Virus record (IMG/VR): IMGVR_UViG_3300025674_000014
Origin: a virus
Lineage: Duplodnaviria; Caudoviricetes
Direction: 5' to 3' (one strand)
Length of the DNA stretch: 64,000 nucleotides
Below are positions 2,797 to 55,071 of the stretch, piece after piece. How positions within the stretch are numbered: position 1 is the first letter of the stretch; each line of letters opens with the position of its first letter. The translations under genes and the position numbers were made by a program. The notes under the pieces were generated by a model. The model saw nothing but the letters and a program-made list of their open reading frames with translations. It had not been told where the DNA came from and made no database searches.

Positions 2797-3384
2797 ATGA
2801 TGTCTGAAGCTTACACATTAACAACAATAGTAAATCCTTATGGGGATGGAGTAAGTTATAATAAAATTATAAAATTTGACTCTAACTTATACACACAAAG
2901 TACATTTGTTTTTACTAAAGAAAATATGAGTGCATTAGTATGTAGAGATATGTACCATAACTGCAGTATAGAAATATTAACTCCTGACATCAGTGTTGAT
3001 GATGTTTCTTCTACATTTTTATCCGGACAAGATATAGAAATGTTATTAGATGGTAATCAAAAATATTTTCTATTTCATTCTTTAGATAAAGTAGTTTATC
3101 AATTATCTTTATTAGGAGCAACTAATAAGTTTCAACAATACATTTACGATAAATTTAATGAAAGTTATATAAAAAATATAGATTTTATATTAATAAAAGA
3201 AAATAATTATAAAAACTTTAATAGTATGTTTATTGATTTTAATAATTCTGAAGATAGTATAATTTTTGGGGCTAGTCCGTATTGTTATTGTAAATATGAT
3301 AGCAATATGTTAGACATTTTTAATACAAACTCTGATAGTGAAGCTGCTGATATTATTGGAGATGTAACTATTATTAGAAATTAA
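2797..3384 (+). CDS. Hypothetical protein
   Basis: 195-aa ORF; TAAATA at 2787-2792. Confidence 0.75.
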   Translation: MMSEAYTLTTIVNPYGDGVSYNKIIKFDSNLYTQSTFVFTKENMSALVCRDMYHNCSIEILTPDISVDDVSSTFLSGQDIEMLLDGNQKYFLFHSLDKVVYQLSLLGATNKFQQYIYDKFNESYIKNIDFILIKENNYKNFNSMFIDFNNSEDSIIFGASPYCYCKYDSNMLDIFNTNSDSEAADIIGDVTIIRN

Positions 3385-3393
3385 ATAATTACT

Positions 3394-4605
3394 ATGTCTG
3401 ACTTAGACAATAAGTTAATCTTCGAAGCTTACTCTAACAACTTGTTAATAGAACAATTGTTAAACCCTAAAGAAATGTTATCAGATATTGAAAATATATT
3501 TAGTGGTGGTGATGCAACAATGGTGATAAGGTATTTACCTGCTAAATTTAAAAATGCTTTAGGAAAGATAGCAGCTAAATCTATTCTTCAATGGCTTAAT
3601 TCTGTACCTGAACAAGATTATTATGATACTAATTTTGATTTATTATCAAACACACAATTAATGGAATTTAGTGAAAGATTCCAGAACATAGGTAAAACTT
3701 TAAACGATTTAAAAAGAGAAGGTGAATGGGCTTGGAATGATGATGAAGAGAAAAAGAAAAACTTCGAACAAAAATATAAAATGCCTCATCCCAGAAATTT
3801 ACCTGATTGGATGTATGAAGAAGGTACTACAAAGTTAAGAGAAGACCTTTATAAATATTTCTCATATAAATTACTAAAAGCCTCATTAAGAGATAGAGTT
3901 GCTGATGAAATTTATAGTCTGTGGAATTCAATATTATCGAAGAAGTATGATAGTGATGAGTGGCCGTATAGTGATCATTTAATGCATGCTATAGATTTTC
4001 TTACTGATTATAGATTGAATGAAAGAATTGCTCAAAGGTCGGGAATAAGATATGCTCATAGTCAAGAAGGTGTCTTAGAATACTTTTTAAAACAACCTGT
4101 TGAACAAAGACTAATTAAAATGAGTAGGGATTATGACAAGGTTTTAAAAGCAATAGAAGGACCTAAAGATCTTGAAAATGCTAAAAAGATTTATGATGAC
4201 CCTAAAAAAGCTAGACTAATAAAAGATTATGGTAATGGATGGAAATGGGTACAATTATTAGATAATGATGCTTGTCAGATATCTGGTGATCTTATGGATC
4301 ATTGTGTTGGGGGGTATGACCCACTTCACCCTACTAGTAGAATTCTACAACTAGTCGGACCAGATGGTGATGGTCATGCTACCATACAGTTAGCCATTAA
4401 CCTCCCAAAGGGACCGGTTAATGAAGTTGTTCAAATTAAAGGTAAAAAGAATTCTAGATTAAAGCCAGAATATGAAAGAATGGTTAAAGATTTATTGACA
4501 TCATATAAAGATAAACCTTTAACTACAAAGCTAAAAAGCATAAAAGGCGGTGTAATAGACTATCCAGCACCAGTAGAACAACCAACTAGTTACTCTTACA
4601 AATAA
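3394..4605 (+). CDS. PcfJ-like domain protein, candidate internal head protein
   Basis: C-terminal MDHCVGGY...ATIQL...VVQIKGKKN PcfJ-like motif; N-terminal LIFE/A processing-like site; late motif at 3382-3387. Confidence 0.65.
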   Translation: MSDLDNKLIFEAYSNNLLIEQLLNPKEMLSDIENIFSGGDATMVIRYLPAKFKNALGKIAAKSILQWLNSVPEQDYYDTNFDLLSNTQLMEFSERFQNIGKTLNDLKREGEWAWNDDEEKKKNFEQKYKMPHPRNLPDWMYEEGTTKLREDLYKYFSYKLLKASLRDRVADEIYSLWNSILSKKYDSDEWPYSDHLMHAIDFLTDYRLNERIAQRSGIRYAHSQEGVLEYFLKQPVEQRLIKMSRDYDKVLKAIEGPKDLENAKKIYDDPKKARLIKDYGNGWKWVQLLDNDACQISGDLMDHCVGGYDPLHPTSRILQLVGPDGDGHATIQLAINLPKGPVNEVVQIKGKKNSRLKPEYERMVKDLLTSYKDKPLTTKLKSIKGGVIDYPAPVEQPTSYSYK

Positions 4606-4613
4606 ATATATAT

Positions 4614-5705
4614 ATGTCAGACTTAGATGACAAATTAATAATCGAAGCTATGAGCAGAAGAGGCTTTCTAGATACACTAGGTAAAGCAGCTGCTGCAGCA
4701 GGACTTAGTCCTAAATTACCTATTCCAAACTTTAGTGATGACGAAGATGACGACGATGACGATGATGATTATGAAGGAGATGACTGGACTGATGTGGAAG
4801 GTCATGATATTGAAGACTGGATTAACGATAATGTATTAGATTATACTATTGATCAGGCAATTGGAGATTCTAAAATATCAAACTCTTTAGTAGATAAAAT
4901 ACAAAAGATAGTATCAGATATAATAGGCTCTGGTGAGGATATTTCTAATGATTTGATGGTTATATTTTCTAAACAATTAAATGATGAAATGAGTAGAGGA
5001 AAACGTTTTTATGAAACTATTGAAGATCCAGAATTTGTAGAGTTAATGATCGCAAATATGACTAAAGCTATACATAACCAGCTTGACTTAAAACAAGTCA
5101 TAGCTAAGGCTGCTGCTAGAGAGTTAAAAGGAGATAAGCCTGAAGATATATTAAAGGATGTTGATGCTGAATTTGAAGCTAAATTAGAAGCTGATTGGTA
5201 TAAGCGAAATTACCCAATCAAATACTCTAAGTTTGATACTGCAGGAGGAACTAAAGAGTATAATTATACTGCAGATAGTTATATTATGAGCAATAAAGAT
5301 GGTAAGATGTTATCAGAGGCTTATCTAAATGAAATAGCATTTGCTAAGAATGTAAATTACAATGATGACGATAGAGTGAAAGATACATTACATGATGTAG
5401 CAGATAGAAAAGATAAGAAGAAATGGAAATTTGATCCTCTTAACCCTGAATCTAAAGATGGTTATCATGAAGAAGGAGAAGAGTCTTTGAAGAAAGTTAT
5501 TGATAAAACATTTGCTTTAAATCTTCCAGGATTAGATGAACTTAATGAAGACATAGCTCATTTAGATATGTTTGTATCATATGATAGAAAAGTATTTAAA
5601 CTTCTTAAAATTACAGGTCTCAATCAATACAGAGTAATGGGTACATATACCGATTCTTCTGAACTCAGAAGAGATATAAGATCTATTCAATTAGAAAACC
5701 TATAA
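4614..5705 (+). CDS. Acidic candidate internal head protein with a twin-arginine-like motif
   Basis: N-terminus MSDLDDKLIIEA-MSRRGFL; poly-Asp tract; internal MLSEAYLNEIA; late motif at 4603-4608. Confidence 0.6.
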   Translation: MSDLDDKLIIEAMSRRGFLDTLGKAAAAAGLSPKLPIPNFSDDEDDDDDDDDYEGDDWTDVEGHDIEDWINDNVLDYTIDQAIGDSKISNSLVDKIQKIVSDIIGSGEDISNDLMVIFSKQLNDEMSRGKRFYETIEDPEFVELMIANMTKAIHNQLDLKQVIAKAAARELKGDKPEDILKDVDAEFEAKLEADWYKRNYPIKYSKFDTAGGTKEYNYTADSYIMSNKDGKMLSEAYLNEIAFAKNVNYNDDDRVKDTLHDVADRKDKKKWKFDPLNPESKDGYHEEGEESLKKVIDKTFALNLPGLDELNEDIAHLDMFVSYDRKVFKLLKITGLNQYRVMGTYTDSSELRRDIRSIQLENL

Positions 5706-5790: not shown

Positions 5791-6741
5791 ATGATTCCTT
5801 TCAAAAAATTCTATATTTCAGAAAAGAAAGAAAATTACGGTCGATACAAATATAAATTAATGAATCGATTACGTGAAAATTCAGATGAAAATCTTCAACG
5901 AATCATTAATGGTATGTCCGGAAGAGCTTCTGTTCTAAGCTTTCCTTTTGATTACAATTTTGAAAGTAATATTTTAAAAAATTATAATGGGCCATCTGCA
6001 TTAGATGTATATTCAGCAGAAAGATTAAGACCTCAATCTAAAGAAGAAGATGTAGAAAGGTTAAGGGTAAATAAAGCAAGAAAATTCATACGAAGTCATC
6101 CAGGAAGTAGAGTATTTTTTCCTGCTGAATATGTAAGATATCAAGGATACGAAACTGGAAGATTATGGCCAGGGGAGATTGTTAAAATAGCTTCTAAAGA
6201 TGTAGATGTAGCTGACGTTCTTAATGGTAAATATGGATTTGTTAACGCTGACCAATATGGTTATAGATGCGGAGTGTTATCATATTGCGGTTATGTAGCT
6301 GCAGAAAATTCAATGAATAAACTTCCAGAATGTGATATTATAGATTTAGATTATGTAACTGGTCCTTCTTTTAAAATGATGATGCAAATAAGAAAAGCAT
6401 ACAAATATTTAAAACAAGGAGGTCTTTTAATGACAGGTATTAATTTAAGAGATTTTAGATCAGGGGAATCTAATAGAGATAGAAATATGTTTAAAATGTA
6501 TACACCTAGATCTTATAGAACTATAGGTGGTAAAAGTTTTGATGTACCAGAACAACAACAAAGAGAATTTGGAATATCATATAAAGATTCATTTGATGAT
6601 TATAATAACATTACATTTAACATTCTTAATATGTTAAAAGATGATCTTAATGTGCCTTTAAAACCTATATATGTTAATCATTATAGAGGAGGGACTACAA
6701 ATAAAGGACACGCTATGCTTAGACTAGGATTTACGAAATGA
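5791..6741 (+). CDS. Hypothetical protein, possibly a class I SAM-methyltransferase-like fold, with a CTS-like N-terminus
   Basis: MIPFKKFYISE N-terminus; CDIIDLDY...KYLKQGGLLMTG resembles the MTase beta4-beta5 region. Confidence 0.45.
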   Translation: MIPFKKFYISEKKENYGRYKYKLMNRLRENSDENLQRIINGMSGRASVLSFPFDYNFESNILKNYNGPSALDVYSAERLRPQSKEEDVERLRVNKARKFIRSHPGSRVFFPAEYVRYQGYETGRLWPGEIVKIASKDVDVADVLNGKYGFVNADQYGYRCGVLSYCGYVAAENSMNKLPECDIIDLDYVTGPSFKMMMQIRKAYKYLKQGGLLMTGINLRDFRSGESNRDRNMFKMYTPRSYRTIGGKSFDVPEQQQREFGISYKDSFDDYNNITFNILNMLKDDLNVPLKPIYVNHYRGGTTNKGHAMLRLGFTK

Positions 6742-7277
6742 TTATAAAGGAAACATTTGATTCATCTTATACTATATCTCATGGTGTTGAATATGATCCA
6801 CCTGATATGTATGCATATGAATTTGATACTGGCTCTAATCAAGATGGTGTTAGACATGGGAATAGTGATGGGTCTAAGTACGTAGTTAATTTTGAGAAAT
6901 CATCATTATCTGATATACCAGGTGAAAATAGAGGAACATATCACTTTCAATTTTCTCAAGAATATGAAGATGCTCATGAAGCTGATTTTCCATCTGATGA
7001 ACGCAACTATGATATAACAGGATCAGGAAATGAATTTAAAGTATTCGGTACAGTTATTAATACAGTAAGAATATTTTTAAACGAATTAAAAGGTGAGTTA
7101 AAAAAAATAATTTTTACTGCAGAAAAAAGCAAACCATCAAGAGTAAGATTATATAATAGGTTAGTTAAAACTCTATCAAAAAGTAATAATTTTAATTACC
7201 ACATTAAAGAGGGTAATAAATTAGTAACTTACTATCTATATCCAATGACATTTAAAAACGAATATGAAAGACTTTAA
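6738..7277 (+). CDS. Conserved large-phage hypothetical domain (TGSGNEFKVFGTV...SRVRLYNRL)
   Basis: Motif recalled from many T4-like and jumbo phage proteins; ATGA coupling. Confidence 0.55.
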   Translation: MIIKETFDSSYTISHGVEYDPPDMYAYEFDTGSNQDGVRHGNSDGSKYVVNFEKSSLSDIPGENRGTYHFQFSQEYEDAHEADFPSDERNYDITGSGNEFKVFGTVINTVRIFLNELKGELKKIIFTAEKSKPSRVRLYNRLVKTLSKSNNFNYHIKEGNKLVTYYLYPMTFKNEYERL

Positions 7278-29600: not shown

Positions 29601-29812
29601 AAAGTATTTTTAACTACATTCCACGAAGTTAAATATTTTTGATAGGAATTTTTAAAAGTTTCAATTGAAACCGAGTTGTTTTTAAAGTAAGAAAGCCAGG
29701 ATTTAAAATCTAGAGGATTATTATAATCTACAGCATCGGATAAATTACCTAAAACGGTAATTGATCTTTCGATTTTATAATCACTAAATCTATCTATAGT
29801 GTTAACTGGCAT
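26696..29812 (-). CDS. Large putative baseplate wedge protein (gp7-like position)
   Basis: 1038 aa, downstream of gp6, own late motif; family not recognised directly. Confidence 0.5.
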   Translation of the reverse strand: MPVNTIDRFSDYKIERSITVLGNLSDAVDYNNPLDFKSWLSYFKNNSVSIETFKNSYQKYLTSWNVVKNTFLINQNNDVKQQYISLVEQISLDVFTEQERKFLRSIDYKDSEQLDTIVPLVASKIKSLTSYYKNFRETVKTQPRRNNIFSSNIGITSFLTKLISDLLNYNSDTISLAHRFGANKNFVLSNVNYVIDELYDNYDDYFDLTASVPASGYEYGGKERNDQWNSNTNPWDPDLFINYDNSIVRTLSSYNYILEDFISNLSFPVSLNSTDVDYLKNKDFINQLNDGNTDNLNLQNKKALFEKFIGTDWYYLTAGENTSEALSGKLLEAKNISQNYLNRNNVSTATLPNTAFLVREKDIGGFYKPSNLGTLVYNVFKFNYNINYQALSGNTIYYFPDPTKYIGTYGNSKYTKSTFEIFDVNENAYIVNYDVSNSAAFGYINDNSFYLNFHGYENVEEKNQIYSSGVSRNYDKVDFFKGKGDIWSNNDIYNINNKALYPIDERQNSLLVGNNSLVFNSSDIYGNSIGLLKSSTKSLFNSVSSTYNNITQRCLFLSNGLFFINNEPFNYTSAIDGDYGEFIYDILPSQSFTTSLCSLGDLEFTTETSSRLYNGSFDMPWCFTSSIFYNRGNTYDGVFYSTFNNVLLPDSPSSDSPSWNQNIQTVYYNKLVDGASDINGNRPNFVRTATFLRSLSSVIDCGRFEYVNQLDPFNLSNVELKRFDKIKHYGTILEGLSTQYVNEDATSNKSIYDKKYQLSSYSYFRDLNNNVTPLSASLSAIFVKYSAKSEIYNELNNNIIKLDVVFDVCVIETPNYQVIEKIDYDYSTGKVLAFNSSLNYISRITSGNTHIEKFGNFYYHEKSNTILFHKTSIHSALSATNYKYLYPTIYKMELDSLNLRQIFPKSTNSLIYRELSAYSFRSINNINSSIVDASDPYYNVYEVDRPVLTYDSETNTYSYVIKSVDLSDSIAFYYQNYKFINGKFENVDNEIYFQNSRIRNENYSNPLTASFIDYNYLDGTQQSVWLESEGVLKLGEQQ

Positions 29813-48468: not shown

Positions 48469-49734
48469 CTACCCTCTTATAGTAATACCAACTAACCTAA
48501 CCTGTACTGGTGCAGGTATATTTGAACCTACGTGTATAGTTAATTCTTCCGTTCCTGTTACAAAAGAGTTTGGTATAATATGATAACTTGCATCATATCT
48601 ACGTCGCTGAGACCCATCTTTAATGTTAAACGGTAAAGAAGTTAACATCACATTAGAACCAGCAAGAGCATTTCTATAACCAAAAAACCCTGTAGCGTTA
48701 TCTTGATGTGCGCCGGTATACTGAAAGTGAAAATCTTGAATTTGACCCCAAGTTATATTAAAATTTTGAACTGCAGTTCTTACATCATTAATATCTAATG
48801 TTGCTGCTTTATAAGTTATTGGTTCATTTACACCTACCATCGAAACACCGTATCCTAAATAAGTTTGATAATCAGTAAATTTTTCTAAACCGGATGCTAA
48901 AGTAACATTATTACTTGTAATGTTAGGTGTAGGCTTGGCTAACACATTTAATAATGTTACCCCAAGATAGTTGGAACCACCCGGGTTTGAAGCTATAAAA
49001 TTATTACTTAAACCGGTAGGGGAGTTAGTTAAATTGCCATTATTATCAACATAAACAGCTTTTACACCAGCATTATTAAGCCCTGTAATTCTTAAAGATG
49101 ATACAGTTGGGTTAGTTGCATTTGATAAAATTTGATCAAAAGTAACATTATCAACATTACTACTAGCAATTCTACCAAGTACGCTATTTTCATTTACGCT
49201 AATACTATCGGGAGGAAGTTCATTAGTAGATGAATTACCTAATAAACTATTAGCAGATGAACTAGGTAAAACATCATATAATACTTCTCCTACTTTTAAT
49301 TGATTACCATCAATTAAAATAGAAACACCATCAACATCTACATTTAAATTATCGTTATTTAAAACTAAACCATCACCAATGTTTGCAGCTAATCCAATTT
49401 TATCATACCCTGCTTCAACTGATGCATTATCGTTTTCTAAAGATGTTGAACCTTGATAACCGGTTTTTCTTGCATATAAACCTGAACCTAATTTAAAATA
49501 GTCACCAGGCATTGGGTTTAAGGAAGCTACAGTATTAAAATCATTAACAGTACCTAGATATTTTACACCGGTAGCATTACCAATACCGCTTCCATCACCG
49601 ATAAAAAGTCTTTTAGTGTCGGTTGTAAACCCTAACTCACCTTCAGCTAGGGAAATTTGTTTTCGTTCATCATTAGTTCCTTTTCTAACTAATGAACGTA
49701 TAATAGTGTTATCTGTTATTTCTACGCTAGCCAT
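48469..49734 (-). CDS. Fibre-like virion protein with an Mtd_N-type N-terminal domain
   Basis: VRKGTNDER...LAEGELGFTTDTKRLFIGDG; VDGVSILIDGNQLKV fibre repeat. Confidence 0.75.
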   Translation of the reverse strand: MASVEITDNTIIRSLVRKGTNDERKQISLAEGELGFTTDTKRLFIGDGSGIGNATGVKYLGTVNDFNTVASLNPMPGDYFKLGSGLYARKTGYQGSTSLENDNASVEAGYDKIGLAANIGDGLVLNNDNLNVDVDGVSILIDGNQLKVGEVLYDVLPSSSANSLLGNSSTNELPPDSISVNENSVLGRIASSNVDNVTFDQILSNATNPTVSSLRITGLNNAGVKAVYVDNNGNLTNSPTGLSNNFIASNPGGSNYLGVTLLNVLAKPTPNITSNNVTLASGLEKFTDYQTYLGYGVSMVGVNEPITYKAATLDINDVRTAVQNFNITWGQIQDFHFQYTGAHQDNATGFFGYRNALAGSNVMLTSLPFNIKDGSQRRRYDASYHIIPNSFVTGTEELTIHVGSNIPAPVQVRLVGITIRG

Positions 49735-49735
49735 A

Positions 49736-51763
49736 TTATCTAAATTTTAAAAGTGTTGTACCTAAAACATCATCACCATTTATATCTTTCAACACGTGAT
49801 TAGTGTTAGCACTACCAGGTATGGTAATTAAATTTTGAGGATAATTTTGAGTGTTAGAATTATAAGCATTATAAAATGCACCATTTAATGCTCGTACATC
49901 AGGAGTACCTTCACCTCCATTAGGTGTAAATGTAGCGCCCGAACCAATACCTACCCCTTTTCTGTTAACAATACCATCGTTATACCCAGGAGCAAGTGAT
50001 GTAAATACCATGGTAGAATTACCTGATGAATAACTTACATCATATACAGAACTAAAATAATTATCCGTCTTTAAAGCATTTAACGTGGCATCTGCAACTT
50101 CATCTTCAGTTGAAGCAGATTGAATATCTACTTTTACTAAATTAGTTATATAACCCCTATGCTGTGAGTTTACAGATATATCAGGTTGAGTTGCTGAACC
50201 ATCTAAATCGTAGTAAATACAAGTTCTGTTACCTAAAGAATCATATACTAAAAAGTATTTACTATTTGATAAACTTGCTTTAGCAGGAAAATTAGTAATA
50301 CTATGACTTGCTTGTAATCCCCTACCACTTAAATATGCTGCTTCGGTACTTAATACCAGCCAATCATAAAAACTAGCTGAAACTTTACCGTTACTGCTAT
50401 CACCTGCACTCACACCGGAACCGCTTTTACTTTCGTAGGTATTAGCATTAGCGTAAGTAACAGCTGTATCTCCTATAGCATATGTTAATGTGCCTGGGCC
50501 TTGAGCATAATCTATATCATATGGTTCAGTAAAACCTTTTACTAAACATTGAATGTAAATATCATTACTATCAGTCCACGCATCAAAAATATTTTCTTCA
50601 TATGAATTTTGTATACCATTTATAGCTTCAACTACGTTAGCTTTTAAATCAGAACTTGTTGTTGAAAAATTACAACTTATTACTTCAGTTTCTGGATAAG
50701 ATTCAGAATATGCTAACAATGCAGTATCATCAGTAGGGTCTTGTATAAAAATAGAATAAATTACTCCATTACCCCCAGGTAATATAAAAGCTTTATTTTG
50801 GTACTCTCCTGCTGAAACTGGGTCTGTTGTAGTAAAATTACCTATTTTAAAATTAGCATATGCACCTTGATTGGATATACAACTTAAAGGTAGACCGGTT
50901 GTTAAAACTGTACCTGGAAAATCTTGTTTGTTTAAAAAGTAATAAGGATCAGTTAAAGTATCACCAGATAAGTTATTGACTATAGAAGATTGACCTAAAG
51001 CTCTTACAACAGTATTAGAACTGCTGCTACCTATACTTTGTATATTACCTTGAATTTTTGATGCATTTATTTTAGTGGTAGCATAACTATTAATACCTTC
51101 AGTAAGAAGATTTGCATCTGATGCATTTGATATAGGAAAGGTAGGACTAGCATCTAATTTACTAAACCCCGATGCTGACATAAACCCCGGGTTAGTGGCA
51201 TCTGCATTAGAGTGGTGCTGGGTTAAAGTAGCAGTATCTTGAAATCCTAAACCACCGTGTGAAATATTAGTTAATGTACCAACAGATAATTCATTAGAAC
51301 CATTAAAGGTAAGTAAAGTTGATGATTCGGTATCAGTAGCAATATTAATGTATAAAGTATCTGAAGCATCTAAAGCTAAACCAGCTCCTACTTTATCAGC
51401 AGATAATGTTGCAGCTCCAGGTACTAATTCAAGATGATTATTTGAATTATATCTTATAGTACTACCATCAACTCTTGATGATAAAAGATACCATGAATCA
51501 GTAGATGTATAATCTGATGCAGTTAAAGTATAATATAAATTGTTATCTAAAGTAGTATCACCTATAACTGAGTTAGTAGCTACTCTTGCTGTGCTAAAGG
51601 TTTTATTACCTACAATGTTTCCTCCTGTGGAAGTACCATCACCAGCAAATACACGCTTGGTGTCAATAGTGTAGCCTAATTCACCTTCATCTAGTATAAC
51701 GCGCTTTCTTTCCTGGTCAGTACCTCTACGAATTTTTATTTTTGCTGCATCTACCGTCGGCAT
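49736..51763 (-). CDS. Fibre-like virion protein with an Mtd_N-type N-terminal domain
   Basis: IKIRRGTDQER...LDEGELGYTIDTKRVFAGDG; two internal repeated modules. Confidence 0.75.
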   Translation of the reverse strand: MPTVDAAKIKIRRGTDQERKRVILDEGELGYTIDTKRVFAGDGTSTGGNIVGNKTFSTARVATNSVIGDTTLDNNLYYTLTASDYTSTDSWYLLSSRVDGSTIRYNSNNHLELVPGAATLSADKVGAGLALDASDTLYINIATDTESSTLLTFNGSNELSVGTLTNISHGGLGFQDTATLTQHHSNADATNPGFMSASGFSKLDASPTFPISNASDANLLTEGINSYATTKINASKIQGNIQSIGSSSSNTVVRALGQSSIVNNLSGDTLTDPYYFLNKQDFPGTVLTTGLPLSCISNQGAYANFKIGNFTTTDPVSAGEYQNKAFILPGGNGVIYSIFIQDPTDDTALLAYSESYPETEVISCNFSTTSSDLKANVVEAINGIQNSYEENIFDAWTDSNDIYIQCLVKGFTEPYDIDYAQGPGTLTYAIGDTAVTYANANTYESKSGSGVSAGDSSNGKVSASFYDWLVLSTEAAYLSGRGLQASHSITNFPAKASLSNSKYFLVYDSLGNRTCIYYDLDGSATQPDISVNSQHRGYITNLVKVDIQSASTEDEVADATLNALKTDNYFSSVYDVSYSSGNSTMVFTSLAPGYNDGIVNRKGVGIGSGATFTPNGGEGTPDVRALNGAFYNAYNSNTQNYPQNLITIPGSANTNHVLKDINGDDVLGTTLLKFR

Positions 51764-53295: not shown

Positions 53296-55071
53296 TTATT
53301 GAACCGGGGCTGGTTCTGCGGCAGGAGCGGCACCTCCTTCAGGCGGAACTTCGCCTCCAGTTACATCAGGCCCGCCTCCTTCTGGTGGAGGACCAAAATC
53401 AGGGGGTAGGCCTGAACCGCCACCTGCGGGTATTGCACCTCCACCAGCTTCCATTCCTTCTCCCCCTTCGGCTCCACCAGAGGCAATAGCCTCTCTCCAA
53501 TTAGGACCACTAGCTTCAATCTGAGCTAATTCCCAAGTGAGTTCTTTGTCCTTGCGTAAAAATTCTCTATTAGCTTTAACTTCAATATCAGACCAACCTA
53601 AGTACTTCTTCTGAGCCCAAGTATTAGAAACAAACTCACTATTAGTTAAACTTGACCAGTTATTAACTTTAAGCTCAAGCTTTTGCTGCTCTCGCATTTC
53701 AAAGAAGTTAGAAGGTACATTAAACTCTAAATCTAAATTTAGTTCTTTTAGATTATATTTCTCCCATATCTTCTTAAGTTTAAGATGAGTTATAAAGCCA
53801 TTCTTTAATCCTGCAGCAAACTGCATTTGCATACGAATAATAAAACGAGCAAACTTAAGTTCTTCTCTTAATATATCTGTACCATCCTGAAATGATTGCT
53901 CAGGGTTTAATCTAGTTACAGGTACTTTAAGTGACTTATATAACTTCTTCATGAAGTACATTAAGTCTTCCAACTCACCTAAATTCTGACCACCAGCTAA
54001 AGTTGTAACACTTGTACCTTCACTACCTGCTCTCTTTGCAAACCAAAAAGAGTCTAGCATTGACTGAGGTGAAAATTTCATTACCTGACCACTACTATCA
54101 GTATCATATGTATGTCTACTCCAATATTTTTGCTGAAGGTTTCTTAGATAACCTTCTGCTTTAGGAGGTGACATATTACCTACATCTACATTGAATACTA
54201 ACTTCTCAGGTGCTCTTACTAATCTATATATAACAATTGCATCTTCAATGAGAGATAACTGTCTATAAGCTCTTCTAGCATTCTCTAAGTAAGGTAATCT
54301 AATTGTCTTATTATCATTCCAGATACCAGAGTTAACATATGTAACCTGATTTTTGTCCATTGGAATGAGTTGCATGTCCTCAATCTTAGTAGGATTCTCT
54401 TCATTAAAGACAGGTTTTCTTAAAAGATAACCTTGAACAATACTATTTTGAATATTACCAAAAATTGGATCGATGAGTTCGGTGGGAATTTGTACTGTAC
54501 CTAAAATACCTTCTTTTGGGTGATCTTTATGAATAATATGTTCCCAATAAACTTCACCCTCTACAAGTAATTGTCTAAAATATTCCCAACCTTTATGCTC
54601 TAAATCAAAGTAACTAATGAACTTCTGAAATTCATCTTCTAATTGCTTTTGTTCATTAGGTTTAAACTCTCTATGTAAAAATTTTAATTTTACAATCTCA
54701 CCGTTAGCATCTTTGTTTATAATCTCATCACAAATTTCATCTAATGCATCTCCAACTTCAGCAAATGCTGCCATTACTCTATAATCACGAATTCTTGCTG
54801 CTTTATCTTGCTGAATATTCGCATACATGAACTCCTGAAAGCCCTTGTCCATTGCGATATCACCAACAGCTGAATTATTAATAGGTGTAGATGATGAAAT
54901 AGATTGACGCTGTAATGCGTCTTCACGACGACTACCTTCGCCTTGAAATAGCTTATACTTAGGGTTTACGTCATTTAACGTTTCGATAGTTTGATAAGAC
55001 TGATAAGGAAGTCTGCTTTGTACATACTTCATTAACGAACGTCCAAATGTATTTTTATTTCCTGTACCCAT
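53296..55071 (-). CDS. gp20: Portal vertex protein, T4 gp20-like
   Basis: RQLSLIEDAIVIYRLVRAPEKLVFNVDVGNM, FWFAKR, GTSVTTLAGGQNLGE, LYKSLKVPVTRL, ILREELKF. Confidence 0.97.
   Translation of the reverse strand: MGTGNKNTFGRSLMKYVQSRLPYQSYQTIETLNDVNPKYKLFQGEGSRREDALQRQSISSSTPINNSAVGDIAMDKGFQEFMYANIQQDKAARIRDYRVMAAFAEVGDALDEICDEIINKDANGEIVKLKFLHREFKPNEQKQLEDEFQKFISYFDLEHKGWEYFRQLLVEGEVYWEHIIHKDHPKEGILGTVQIPTELIDPIFGNIQNSIVQGYLLRKPVFNEENPTKIEDMQLIPMDKNQVTYVNSGIWNDNKTIRLPYLENARRAYRQLSLIEDAIVIYRLVRAPEKLVFNVDVGNMSPPKAEGYLRNLQQKYWSRHTYDTDSSGQVMKFSPQSMLDSFWFAKRAGSEGTSVTTLAGGQNLGELEDLMYFMKKLYKSLKVPVTRLNPEQSFQDGTDILREELKFARFIIRMQMQFAAGLKNGFITHLKLKKIWEKYNLKELNLDLEFNVPSNFFEMREQQKLELKVNNWSSLTNSEFVSNTWAQKKYLGWSDIEVKANREFLRKDKELTWELAQIEASGPNWREAIASGGAEGGEGMEAGGGAIPAGGGSGLPPDFGPPPEGGGPDVTGGEVPPEGGAAPAAEPAPVQ

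Follow-up and report, generated by a model that had tools for sequence, protein, structure and literature searches.

We analyzed a gene of a tailed phage (Caudoviricetes), open reading frame (ORF) P0001, located at positions 4614-5705 of a 64,000-nt stretch of viral DNA (IMG/VR record IMGVR_UViG_3300025674_000014; the whole stretch is referred to here as the window). Comparison of P0001 with its relatives makes it very likely that the protein begins with three elements in series, namely a leader resembling the capsid-targeting sequence (CTS) of phage T4, a site of the type cut by prohead proteases, and a selectively maintained peptide resembling a twin-arginine (Tat) signal, and that these elements head a conserved family of protein cassettes. 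This architecture has probably not been described before; the literature searched contained nothing that joined twin-arginine signals to capsid-targeting sequences, to internal or ejection proteins, or to T4-like phages. By analogy with T4, we also consider it rather probable that P0001 is packaged and cleaved.

The translation bears out the features that a sequence-only reading of this region had listed, namely a leader ending in IIE/A, the motif SRRGFL at nt 4653-4670, a stretch rich in Ala and a tract of poly-Asp. The N-terminus runs I9-I10-E11/A12-M13-S14-R15-R16-G17-F18-L19, with the putative cut marked by the slash, and continues with D20-T-L-G-K24, five Ala residues and G30-L-S-P33. Between D42 and D52 there are 11 acidic residues, one of which is Glu, in a tract that runs on to W58. 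The Tat consensus is S/T-R-R-x-F-L-K, and in a six-frame scan of the entire 64-kb window (G+C content 32%) the pattern [ST]RRxF[LIVM] was unique to this site.

The CTS of T4 comprises the first 10 residues of IPIII, with positions 4 and 7 acting in targeting and positions 8 and 10 (Glu) in processing, and proteins fused to the CTS are packaged and processed and reach the infected cell (PMC9026906). The leader of P0001 has the same format, with about 10 residues, an (I/L)-x-E end and a small P1′ residue. Several comparisons suggest that it is an independent unit. The first 12 residues of the neighboring gene 3394-4605 (P0002) are almost the same as the P0001 leader and are followed by an unrelated body that lacks an RR motif. 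Genes 5791 and 7264 begin with different T4-like leaders, each with a terminal Glu, and the 5791 leader is nearly identical to that of P0030, a relative from another phage in which the Tat-like peptide is present. In the homologues P0018 and P0020, other T4-like leaders precede a retained E-A-x-S-R-R junction, and the P0018 leader fits the T4 pattern exactly, being hydrophobic at positions 4, 7 and 8 and having Glu at position 10. When leader codons were compared between homologues, synonymous change was seen in 14 of the 26 that encode identical residues, and because synonymous changes are so numerous the leader appears to be translated and selected as a peptide. These observations support the view that the first 11 residues act as a module of their own that resembles the T4 CTS.

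The Tat-like peptide directly behind the leader is strongly conserved. A word-indexed search returned 24 metagenomic homologues, and in the alignment of 25 sequences that includes P0001 the invariant positions are M1, E11, A12, S14, R15, R16, F18, L19, L22, G30 and P33. The invariance of RR, F and L extends to P0018 and P0020 despite their different leaders. Conservation of the RR pair across homologues had been set beforehand as a test by which the sequence-only reading could be refuted; as the pair is invariant in 25 of 25 sequences, refutation on this ground fails. In a scan against 18,950 NCBIfam models, the top match of P0001 was the Tat-signal model TIGR01409 (15.1 bits, E 0.022; model cutoff 16.7 bits). 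Residues 1-42 taken alone scored 19.8 bits, P0018 and P0020 scored 17.0 and 19.5 bits, respectively, and all 25 family members matched at E <= 0.1. The Pfam TAT_signal model matched the relative P0036 at 33 bits. Judged by these matches, the Tat resemblance of the SRRGFL segment exceeds chance. A complex prediction for E. coli TatC with residues 12-62 gave a score of 0.00 with controls not run, and thus speaks neither for nor against binding, and a feature search of the ESM Atlas listed Tat-signal families at 0.78-0.84 only, which we regard as leads and not as evidence.

Two wider profile searches, one using the first 41 residues against 1.84 billion representative proteins and the other using a profile of 37 diverse copies against the word index, together yielded about 60 further proteins. 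The non-redundant set comprises 73 copies of the module, 46 of them N-terminal and 27 internal to long proteins; two to four copies occur in proteins of 500-1200 residues (P0030, P0031, P0032, P0036, P0039, and P0062-P0067). A Glu is found 2-6 residues ahead of the first Arg in 61 of the 73 copies, at -4 in 29 of them. The residue that follows this Glu (P1′) is Ala in 40 copies and Ser in 13, and P3 is hydrophobic in 57 of the 61. RR is preceded by Ser (53 copies), Asn (14) or Thr (4), the x position is variable, and F-L is followed by Lys (40) or Gly (25) and then by about 13 mostly small, uncharged residues leading to a nearly invariant Pro. This pattern of conserved and variable positions matches the Tat consensus. 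At E <= 0.01, TIGR01409 matched 26 of 37 diverse copies; a formate-dehydrogenase Tat model matched 16 of the 37. Because the 27 internal copies lie inside long proteins, they could become N-terminal only by cleavage. As far as sequence comparison can tell, the pairing of a T4-protease-type site with a Tat-like peptide is a recurrent, selected architecture. The contigs that carry relatives are T4-like, with UvsY, gp46/47-type, UvsW-type, sheath and baseplate genes, and three of them, 122-170 kb in length, are syntenic with the window.

The sequence-only reading had missed that P0001 belongs to a family of cassettes of about 220 aa with a second conserved motif at the end, and that a second leader with a predicted cut site, at E235, lies within the protein. 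Homologues are collinear to about residue 240, beyond which they carry unrelated C-terminal bodies. The internal leader (M225 to E235) resembles the N-terminal leaders of P0001 and of gene 3394, and like junctions are present in relatives. Residues 229-378 of the relative P0025 are 44% identical (E 1e-38) to the window ORF 6738-7277, and the fusion of this homologue in P0025 demonstrates that cassettes are fused in frame at leader sequences. The switch between homologues at the internal leader, together with the P0025 fusion, thus indicates that P0001 itself consists of two cassettes fused in frame, and its expected products would be residues 12-235 and 236-363. By its sequence and predicted structure, the first of these belongs to a conserved cassette family with a Tat-like N-terminal end, a helical bundle and a conserved end of the YSKFDxAGG type. 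The end motif, Y-x-x-x-D-x-A-G-G or R-D-Y-A-S-G-P, occurs about 200 residues past RR in many relatives (among them P0030, P0035, P0047, P0050, P0056, P0075 and P0085, with a longer variant, R-D-Y-A-S-G-P-H-M-N-S) and is succeeded either by the end of the protein or by the next leader. This end motif (window 5214-5285) has no match among the library families. Both ends of the cassette, the Tat-like peptide and the end motif, are predicted to be flexible. Fold searches with both AlphaFold2 models returned generic helical-bundle likeness only (best Z 6.1 in the PDB, best E 0.09 in BFVD), BLASTP between the bodies of different cassette subfamilies gave nothing significant apart from the end motif, and the C-terminal cargos of P0001 and P0002 showed no similarity to each other. 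When P0001-P0004 were compared with Pfam and PHROGs, no family was found, apart from a weak PcfJ-like match on P0002.

The gene content of the window indicates that this uncultured marine phage is a distant T4-like myophage. The portal gene (53296-55071, minus strand) matches the T4 gp20-type portal PHROG at E 5e-106, and its product is about 31% identical to the portals of cyanophage, Pelagibacter phage HTVC008M and Aeromonas phage Aeh1. The window also encodes a gp15 tail-sheath-stabilizer domain, baseplate hub and wedge proteins, and clamp loaders. At the DNA level no cultured phage matches the window, and megablast and tblastn searches with the region, P0001, P0031 and P0035 against 50,697 phage records gave no match. 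A search for related loci among viral contigs found no relative, and no P0001 relative is present in the record G001, which overlaps the window from 36 to 64 kb and extends 15 kb beyond it. No tRNA genes that might hint at the host were found.

A TAAATA hexamer lies 10-16 nt ahead of the start codon in 25 of 70 ORFs of the window, compared with a background of 0.02 per ORF. The ORFs so preceded include baseplate, gp15-like and fiber genes as well as the co-directional genes 2797, 3394, 4614 and 5791, and the hexamer is retained upstream of P0001 homologues. Since TAAATA is the core of T4-type late promoters, P0001, whose gene lies in a hyperplastic cassette region, is probably a late protein. 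Examples of these TAAATA sites are those at 3382-3387 and before the minus-strand ORF starts at 29812, 42243, 44163 and 62971. Other genes of the window have TATAAT-like hexamers at a similarly short distance from the start. Genes of either promoter class would have mRNAs with an extremely short leader or none, and no Shine-Dalgarno sequence is visible in the TAAATA-preceded ORFs.

The best single reading of these data, which we regard as quite possible, is a chain of loading into the head, cutting, ejection and engagement of the Tat system of the host. In silico, residues 1-11 have the properties of a T4-type capsid-targeting leader with a prohead-protease site, and a second such leader ends at E235. 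The leader would bring the precursor into the prohead core, and cuts after E11 and E235 would free a fragment of residues 12-235 whose N-terminus, A-M-S-R-R-G-F-L, would constitute a Tat signal with a minimal positive n-region. The fragment would then leave the head together with the DNA, as T4 internal proteins do, and the peptide would be read by the TatBC receptor. Two outcomes may be envisaged at this point. The fragment may be exported together with its small helical body, or it may occupy the receptor or the membrane without release, which would fit the shortness of the h-region, its interruption by a lysine and the missing peptidase site. Tat n-regions carry a net positive charge (PMC13673990). 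An N-terminal position with a net-positive n-region is lacking in the primary product of P0001, whose leader has a net charge of -3, and would arise only after a cut at E11; such a switch from a net -3 N-terminus to a net-positive n-region is consistent with unmasking. We rejected masking by an acidic leader as a general rule, as the charge of the leader in relatives varies between about -5 and +2, values that were read by eye from the leader sequences and not tallied computationally. The earlier proposal that head maturation exposes a Tat-like peptide gains partial support, from the modular leader, the invariant RR pair, the coupling to a Glu site (61/73), the 27 internal copies and the charge switch. 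The more specific notion of two addresses in series, whereby the leader loads the head, the protease unmasks the Tat signal and the Tat system of the new host takes the protein, appears rather unlikely to us in this complete form.

Alternatively, P0001 could be an ordinary Tat substrate of the producing cell, with the leader serving as n-region, that is exported to the periplasm late in infection and never packaged. RR at 15-17 is at the usual distance for a Tat signal, late expression is predicted, and the relatives P0056, P0086 and P0089 begin directly at M-N/S-R-R, with no leader. Proximity to the N-terminus, which the sequence-only reading had held to be obligatory for Tat signals, is too strong a demand, because Tat substrates of classes IV and V carry internal, uncleaved signals (PMC13673990), and the existence of such signals is also compatible with export of an uncut protein. 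However, the neighboring gene 3394 bears the same leader without any RR motif, the leader has a net charge of -3 where Tat n-regions are net-positive, and a protein with two to four modules could use all of them only if it were cleaved, an x-E/A site standing before each. A peptidase site was not found. Taken together, these points make export from the producing cell improbable. The closest parallel among internal signals is the class V substrate FecR (PMC13673990), in which, as in P0001, the RR signal lies away from the extreme N-terminus of the primary product. The FecR signal is an uncleaved membrane anchor, whereas in the family described here a single protein can hold up to three or four copies, each of them preceded by a site of the protease type, and the h-regions are too weak to serve as an anchor.

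Several observations weigh against the view that host Tat engagement is the function of the peptide. The whole-protein TIGR01409 score of P0001 (15.1 bits) is under the cutoff of the model, and Pfam TAT_signal (PF10518) gives no match on P0001. The caveat of the sequence-only reading that the h-region is weakly hydrophobic was correct, as D20 and K24 break it and leave a longest uncharged run of 9 residues (A25-P33). An h-region would be expected to have about 12 or more uncharged, moderately hydrophobic residues after the motif, which P0020, P0031 and P0043 have and P0001 lacks; over the 73 copies the uncharged run has a median of 11 and a range of 6-23. The Asp at position 20 is peculiar to the closest copies of P0001, most homologues having Gly, and this makes the P0001 copy the least Tat-like of its family. 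After the P0001 h-region there is no AxA site and no Cys or lipobox; such a site is not obligatory, being absent from substrates of classes III-V. Atypically for a Tat signal, 49 of the 73 copies keep a basic residue within the presumed h-region, and behind the Pro another conserved piece is found in many relatives. Over 13 sequences with less than 85% identity, mean column conservation was highest in the Tat-like peptide (0.91) and the end motif (0.90), lower in the leader (0.82) and the body (0.66), and lowest in the cargo (0.42). The peptide is thus more conserved than the body, which is the opposite of ordinary signal peptides, and its high conservation together with the paired end motif points to a specific binding partner that is not necessarily TatC. 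Packaging also lacks its expected partners in the material covered, as neither a gp21-type protease gene nor a major capsid gene was found in G001, in which PF03420 was looked for, or in the window ORFs scanned, which are only part of those in the window, the remaining ~200 kb of the genome lying outside. Ten ORFs around the portal (window 38.9-63.0 kb) gave no protease or capsid-protein match in Pfam. Two large portal-adjacent proteins (window 48469-51763, minus strand) have an N-terminal Mtd_N (major tropism determinant) domain as their only Pfam match, and would be fiber-like proteins at the place where T4 would have head genes.

Some of these features would be expected if the RR peptide were a short linear motif used within the phage and not an export address. 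In one form of this explanation the peptide and the C-end motif bind a phage partner (the inner wall of the capsid, the scaffold core or the portal) or DNA inside the head, and in another the peptide draws the precursor towards the inner membrane, the site at which proheads of the T4 type are assembled; the Tat likeness would be convergent, or used for membrane affinity only. Consistent with this, conservation peaks in the peptide and the end motif, while the body drifts past BLAST recognition; both ends are predicted to be flexible, as docking motifs would be; basic residues interrupt the would-be h-region and a piece after the Pro is shared by many relatives; a signal-peptidase site was not found; and T4 prohead assembly takes place on the membrane (PMC9026906). 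On the other hand, the peptide matches curated Tat models position by position, also in copies without an internal Lys (P0020, P0031, P0043 and P0057), T4 requires no second motif once the CTS is removed, and a candidate partner is absent from our analysis. We consider a phage-internal or membrane-proximal docking role rather unlikely, though it is the main alternative.

Part of the conservation may also reside in the DNA. In the close subfamily, synonymous changes number 4 of 55 within codons 12-33, as compared with 89 of 320 elsewhere, and codons 14-30 are almost identical in DNA sequence in five genes with diverged bodies, even behind the different leader of L013. The scarcity of synonymous change and the identical DNA block indicate that recombination or nucleotide-level constraint contributes, which also tells against ascribing the conservation to Tat function alone. 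The stretch at window positions 4653-4703 (present also in L001, L005, L013 and L014) is locally G+C-rich, with CAGCTG and CTGCAG as palindromes, and possibly serves as a recombination linker or a nucleic-acid-level signal. Taken to its limit, this would mean that the block persists chiefly as DNA, a homology linker through which cassettes are shuffled, with a functionless peptide. Suppressed synonymous change in codons 12-33, near-identical DNA in codons 14-30 and the demonstrable shuffling and fusion of cassettes would fit such a role, for which the conserved 5′ ends of T4 internal-protein genes offer a likeness. However, the subfamilies L009, L011, L012 and L015 encode the RR motif with different codons, and the peptide itself is therefore also selected. 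The motif is retained in internal copies, and the invariant positions coincide exactly with the Tat consensus. A functionless linker is thus quite improbable. The features discussed above and the neighboring genes are listed in Table 1.

Table 1. Coordinates of P0001, its segments and nearby features in the window.
Feature	Coordinates	Strand	Remarks
ORF P0001, two-cassette protein	4614..5705	+	363 aa; 24 metagenomic homologues
Leader, T4 capsid-targeting-sequence-like, residues 1-11	4614..4646	+	Ends I-I-E, Ala at P1′
Tat-signal-like peptide, residues 12-33	4647..4712	+	SRRGFL 4653-4670, Ala-rich stretch, Pro33; TIGR01409 matches
Pro-rich spacer KLPIPNFS, residues 34-41	4713..4736	+	Kept in close subfamily only
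Acidic tract, residues 42-58, poly-Asp run D42-D52	4737..4787	+	Homologues differ in length
Predicted helical-bundle body, residues 61-200	4794..5213	+	AlphaFold2 pLDDT (predicted local distance difference test) ~80-93
End-of-cassette motif, residues 201-224, I-x-Y-S-K-F-D-T-A-G-G ... Y-T-A-D-S-Y	5214..5285	+	15 invariant columns
Internal second leader and putative cut site, residues 225-235, M-S-N-K-D-G-K-M-L-S-E then A-Y	5286..5318	+	
Variable C-terminal cargo, residues 236-363	5319..5702	+	Homologues carry unrelated sequences here
Upstream cassette gene P0002, 403 aa	3394..4605	+	Near-identical leader; no RR motif; weak PcfJ-like C-terminal match
Downstream cassette gene P0003, 316 aa	5791..6741	+	Other T4-like leader ending S-E
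Free-standing gene	6738..7277	+	Homologue fused behind Tat-like cassette in relative P0025
Late-promoter-like TAAATA	4603..4608	+	11 nt before ATG; overlaps stop codon of upstream gene

The PcfJ-like match of P0002 covers residues 294-361 at E 0.004, which is under the cutoff, and a 487-aa protein with an equally weak PcfJ-like match is encoded in syntenic Tara contigs (L009:15769-17232). Among the multi-cassette relatives of P0001, P0039, P0063, P0064 and P0075 (L011:10001-11218) have C-terminal arrays of two to four small helix-turn-helix (HTH) domains (HTH_38, HTH_50, GcrA-like), and these proteins are candidate DNA-binding proteins that would be carried inside the head. We considered HTH cargo as a bar to a periplasmic fate and dropped this argument; since a further leader and cut site precede the HTH part of P0075, that part would form a fragment of its own. 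In a related contig, a Tat-like cassette gene has a histidine kinase and response-regulator pair nearby (L005:6424-9324).

The system shares several traits with the internal head proteins of T4, the classic example of proteins that a phage injects along with its DNA. Like IPI, IPII, IPIII and Alt, P0001 has a short leader that contains hydrophobic residues and has a terminal (I/L)-x-E cut site, one leader is found on unrelated bodies of neighboring genes in a plastic region, and expression is predicted to be late in a T4-like phage background. In contrast, the bodies of the P0001 family have no sequence similarity to those of T4 internal proteins, a conserved Tat-signal-like peptide stands at a fixed distance behind the leader, and the cassettes are often fused in frame; packaging and cleavage, moreover, are deduced from sequence in the present case. 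To our knowledge, all known T4 internal proteins act in the cytoplasm. With bacterial Tat signals, the P0001 peptide shares the core S-R-R-x-F-L, a segment of some 13 residues rich in Gly and Ala, and a terminal Pro, and the isolated segment and its homologues score at or above the TIGR01409 cutoff. It differs from them in standing behind an acidic leader, in having a charged h-region and no AxA site or lipobox, in being more conserved than the mature part, and in its phage origin. Glu-ended sites also recall the giant phages phiKZ, 201phi2-1 and SPN3US, in which cleavage at short motifs, on the C-terminal side of Glu and with redundant sites, affects many head proteins and propeptides (PMC9026906). 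Head and ejection proteins of these phages are cut by gp21-related proteases; the giant phages are, however, a different group, and the literature searched shows no Tat-like peptide behind their sites.

If the full chain of loading, cutting, ejection and Tat engagement is true, a protein would appear in the periplasm, or Tat would be blocked, within seconds of infection and before phage gene expression. Phages could then pre-load effectors addressed to the periplasm or the inner membrane, or inhibitors directed at a host export pathway, and the cassettes would be a new place to seek counter-defense, superinfection-exclusion and envelope-remodeling functions. They would also offer a natural protease-activated signal peptide for T4-based packaging and delivery technology. 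Even without the Tat reading, these data describe a widespread and probably undescribed cassette family of uncultured T4-like phages, with two conserved terminal motifs and fusion-tolerant modules that appear to be delimited by protease sites.

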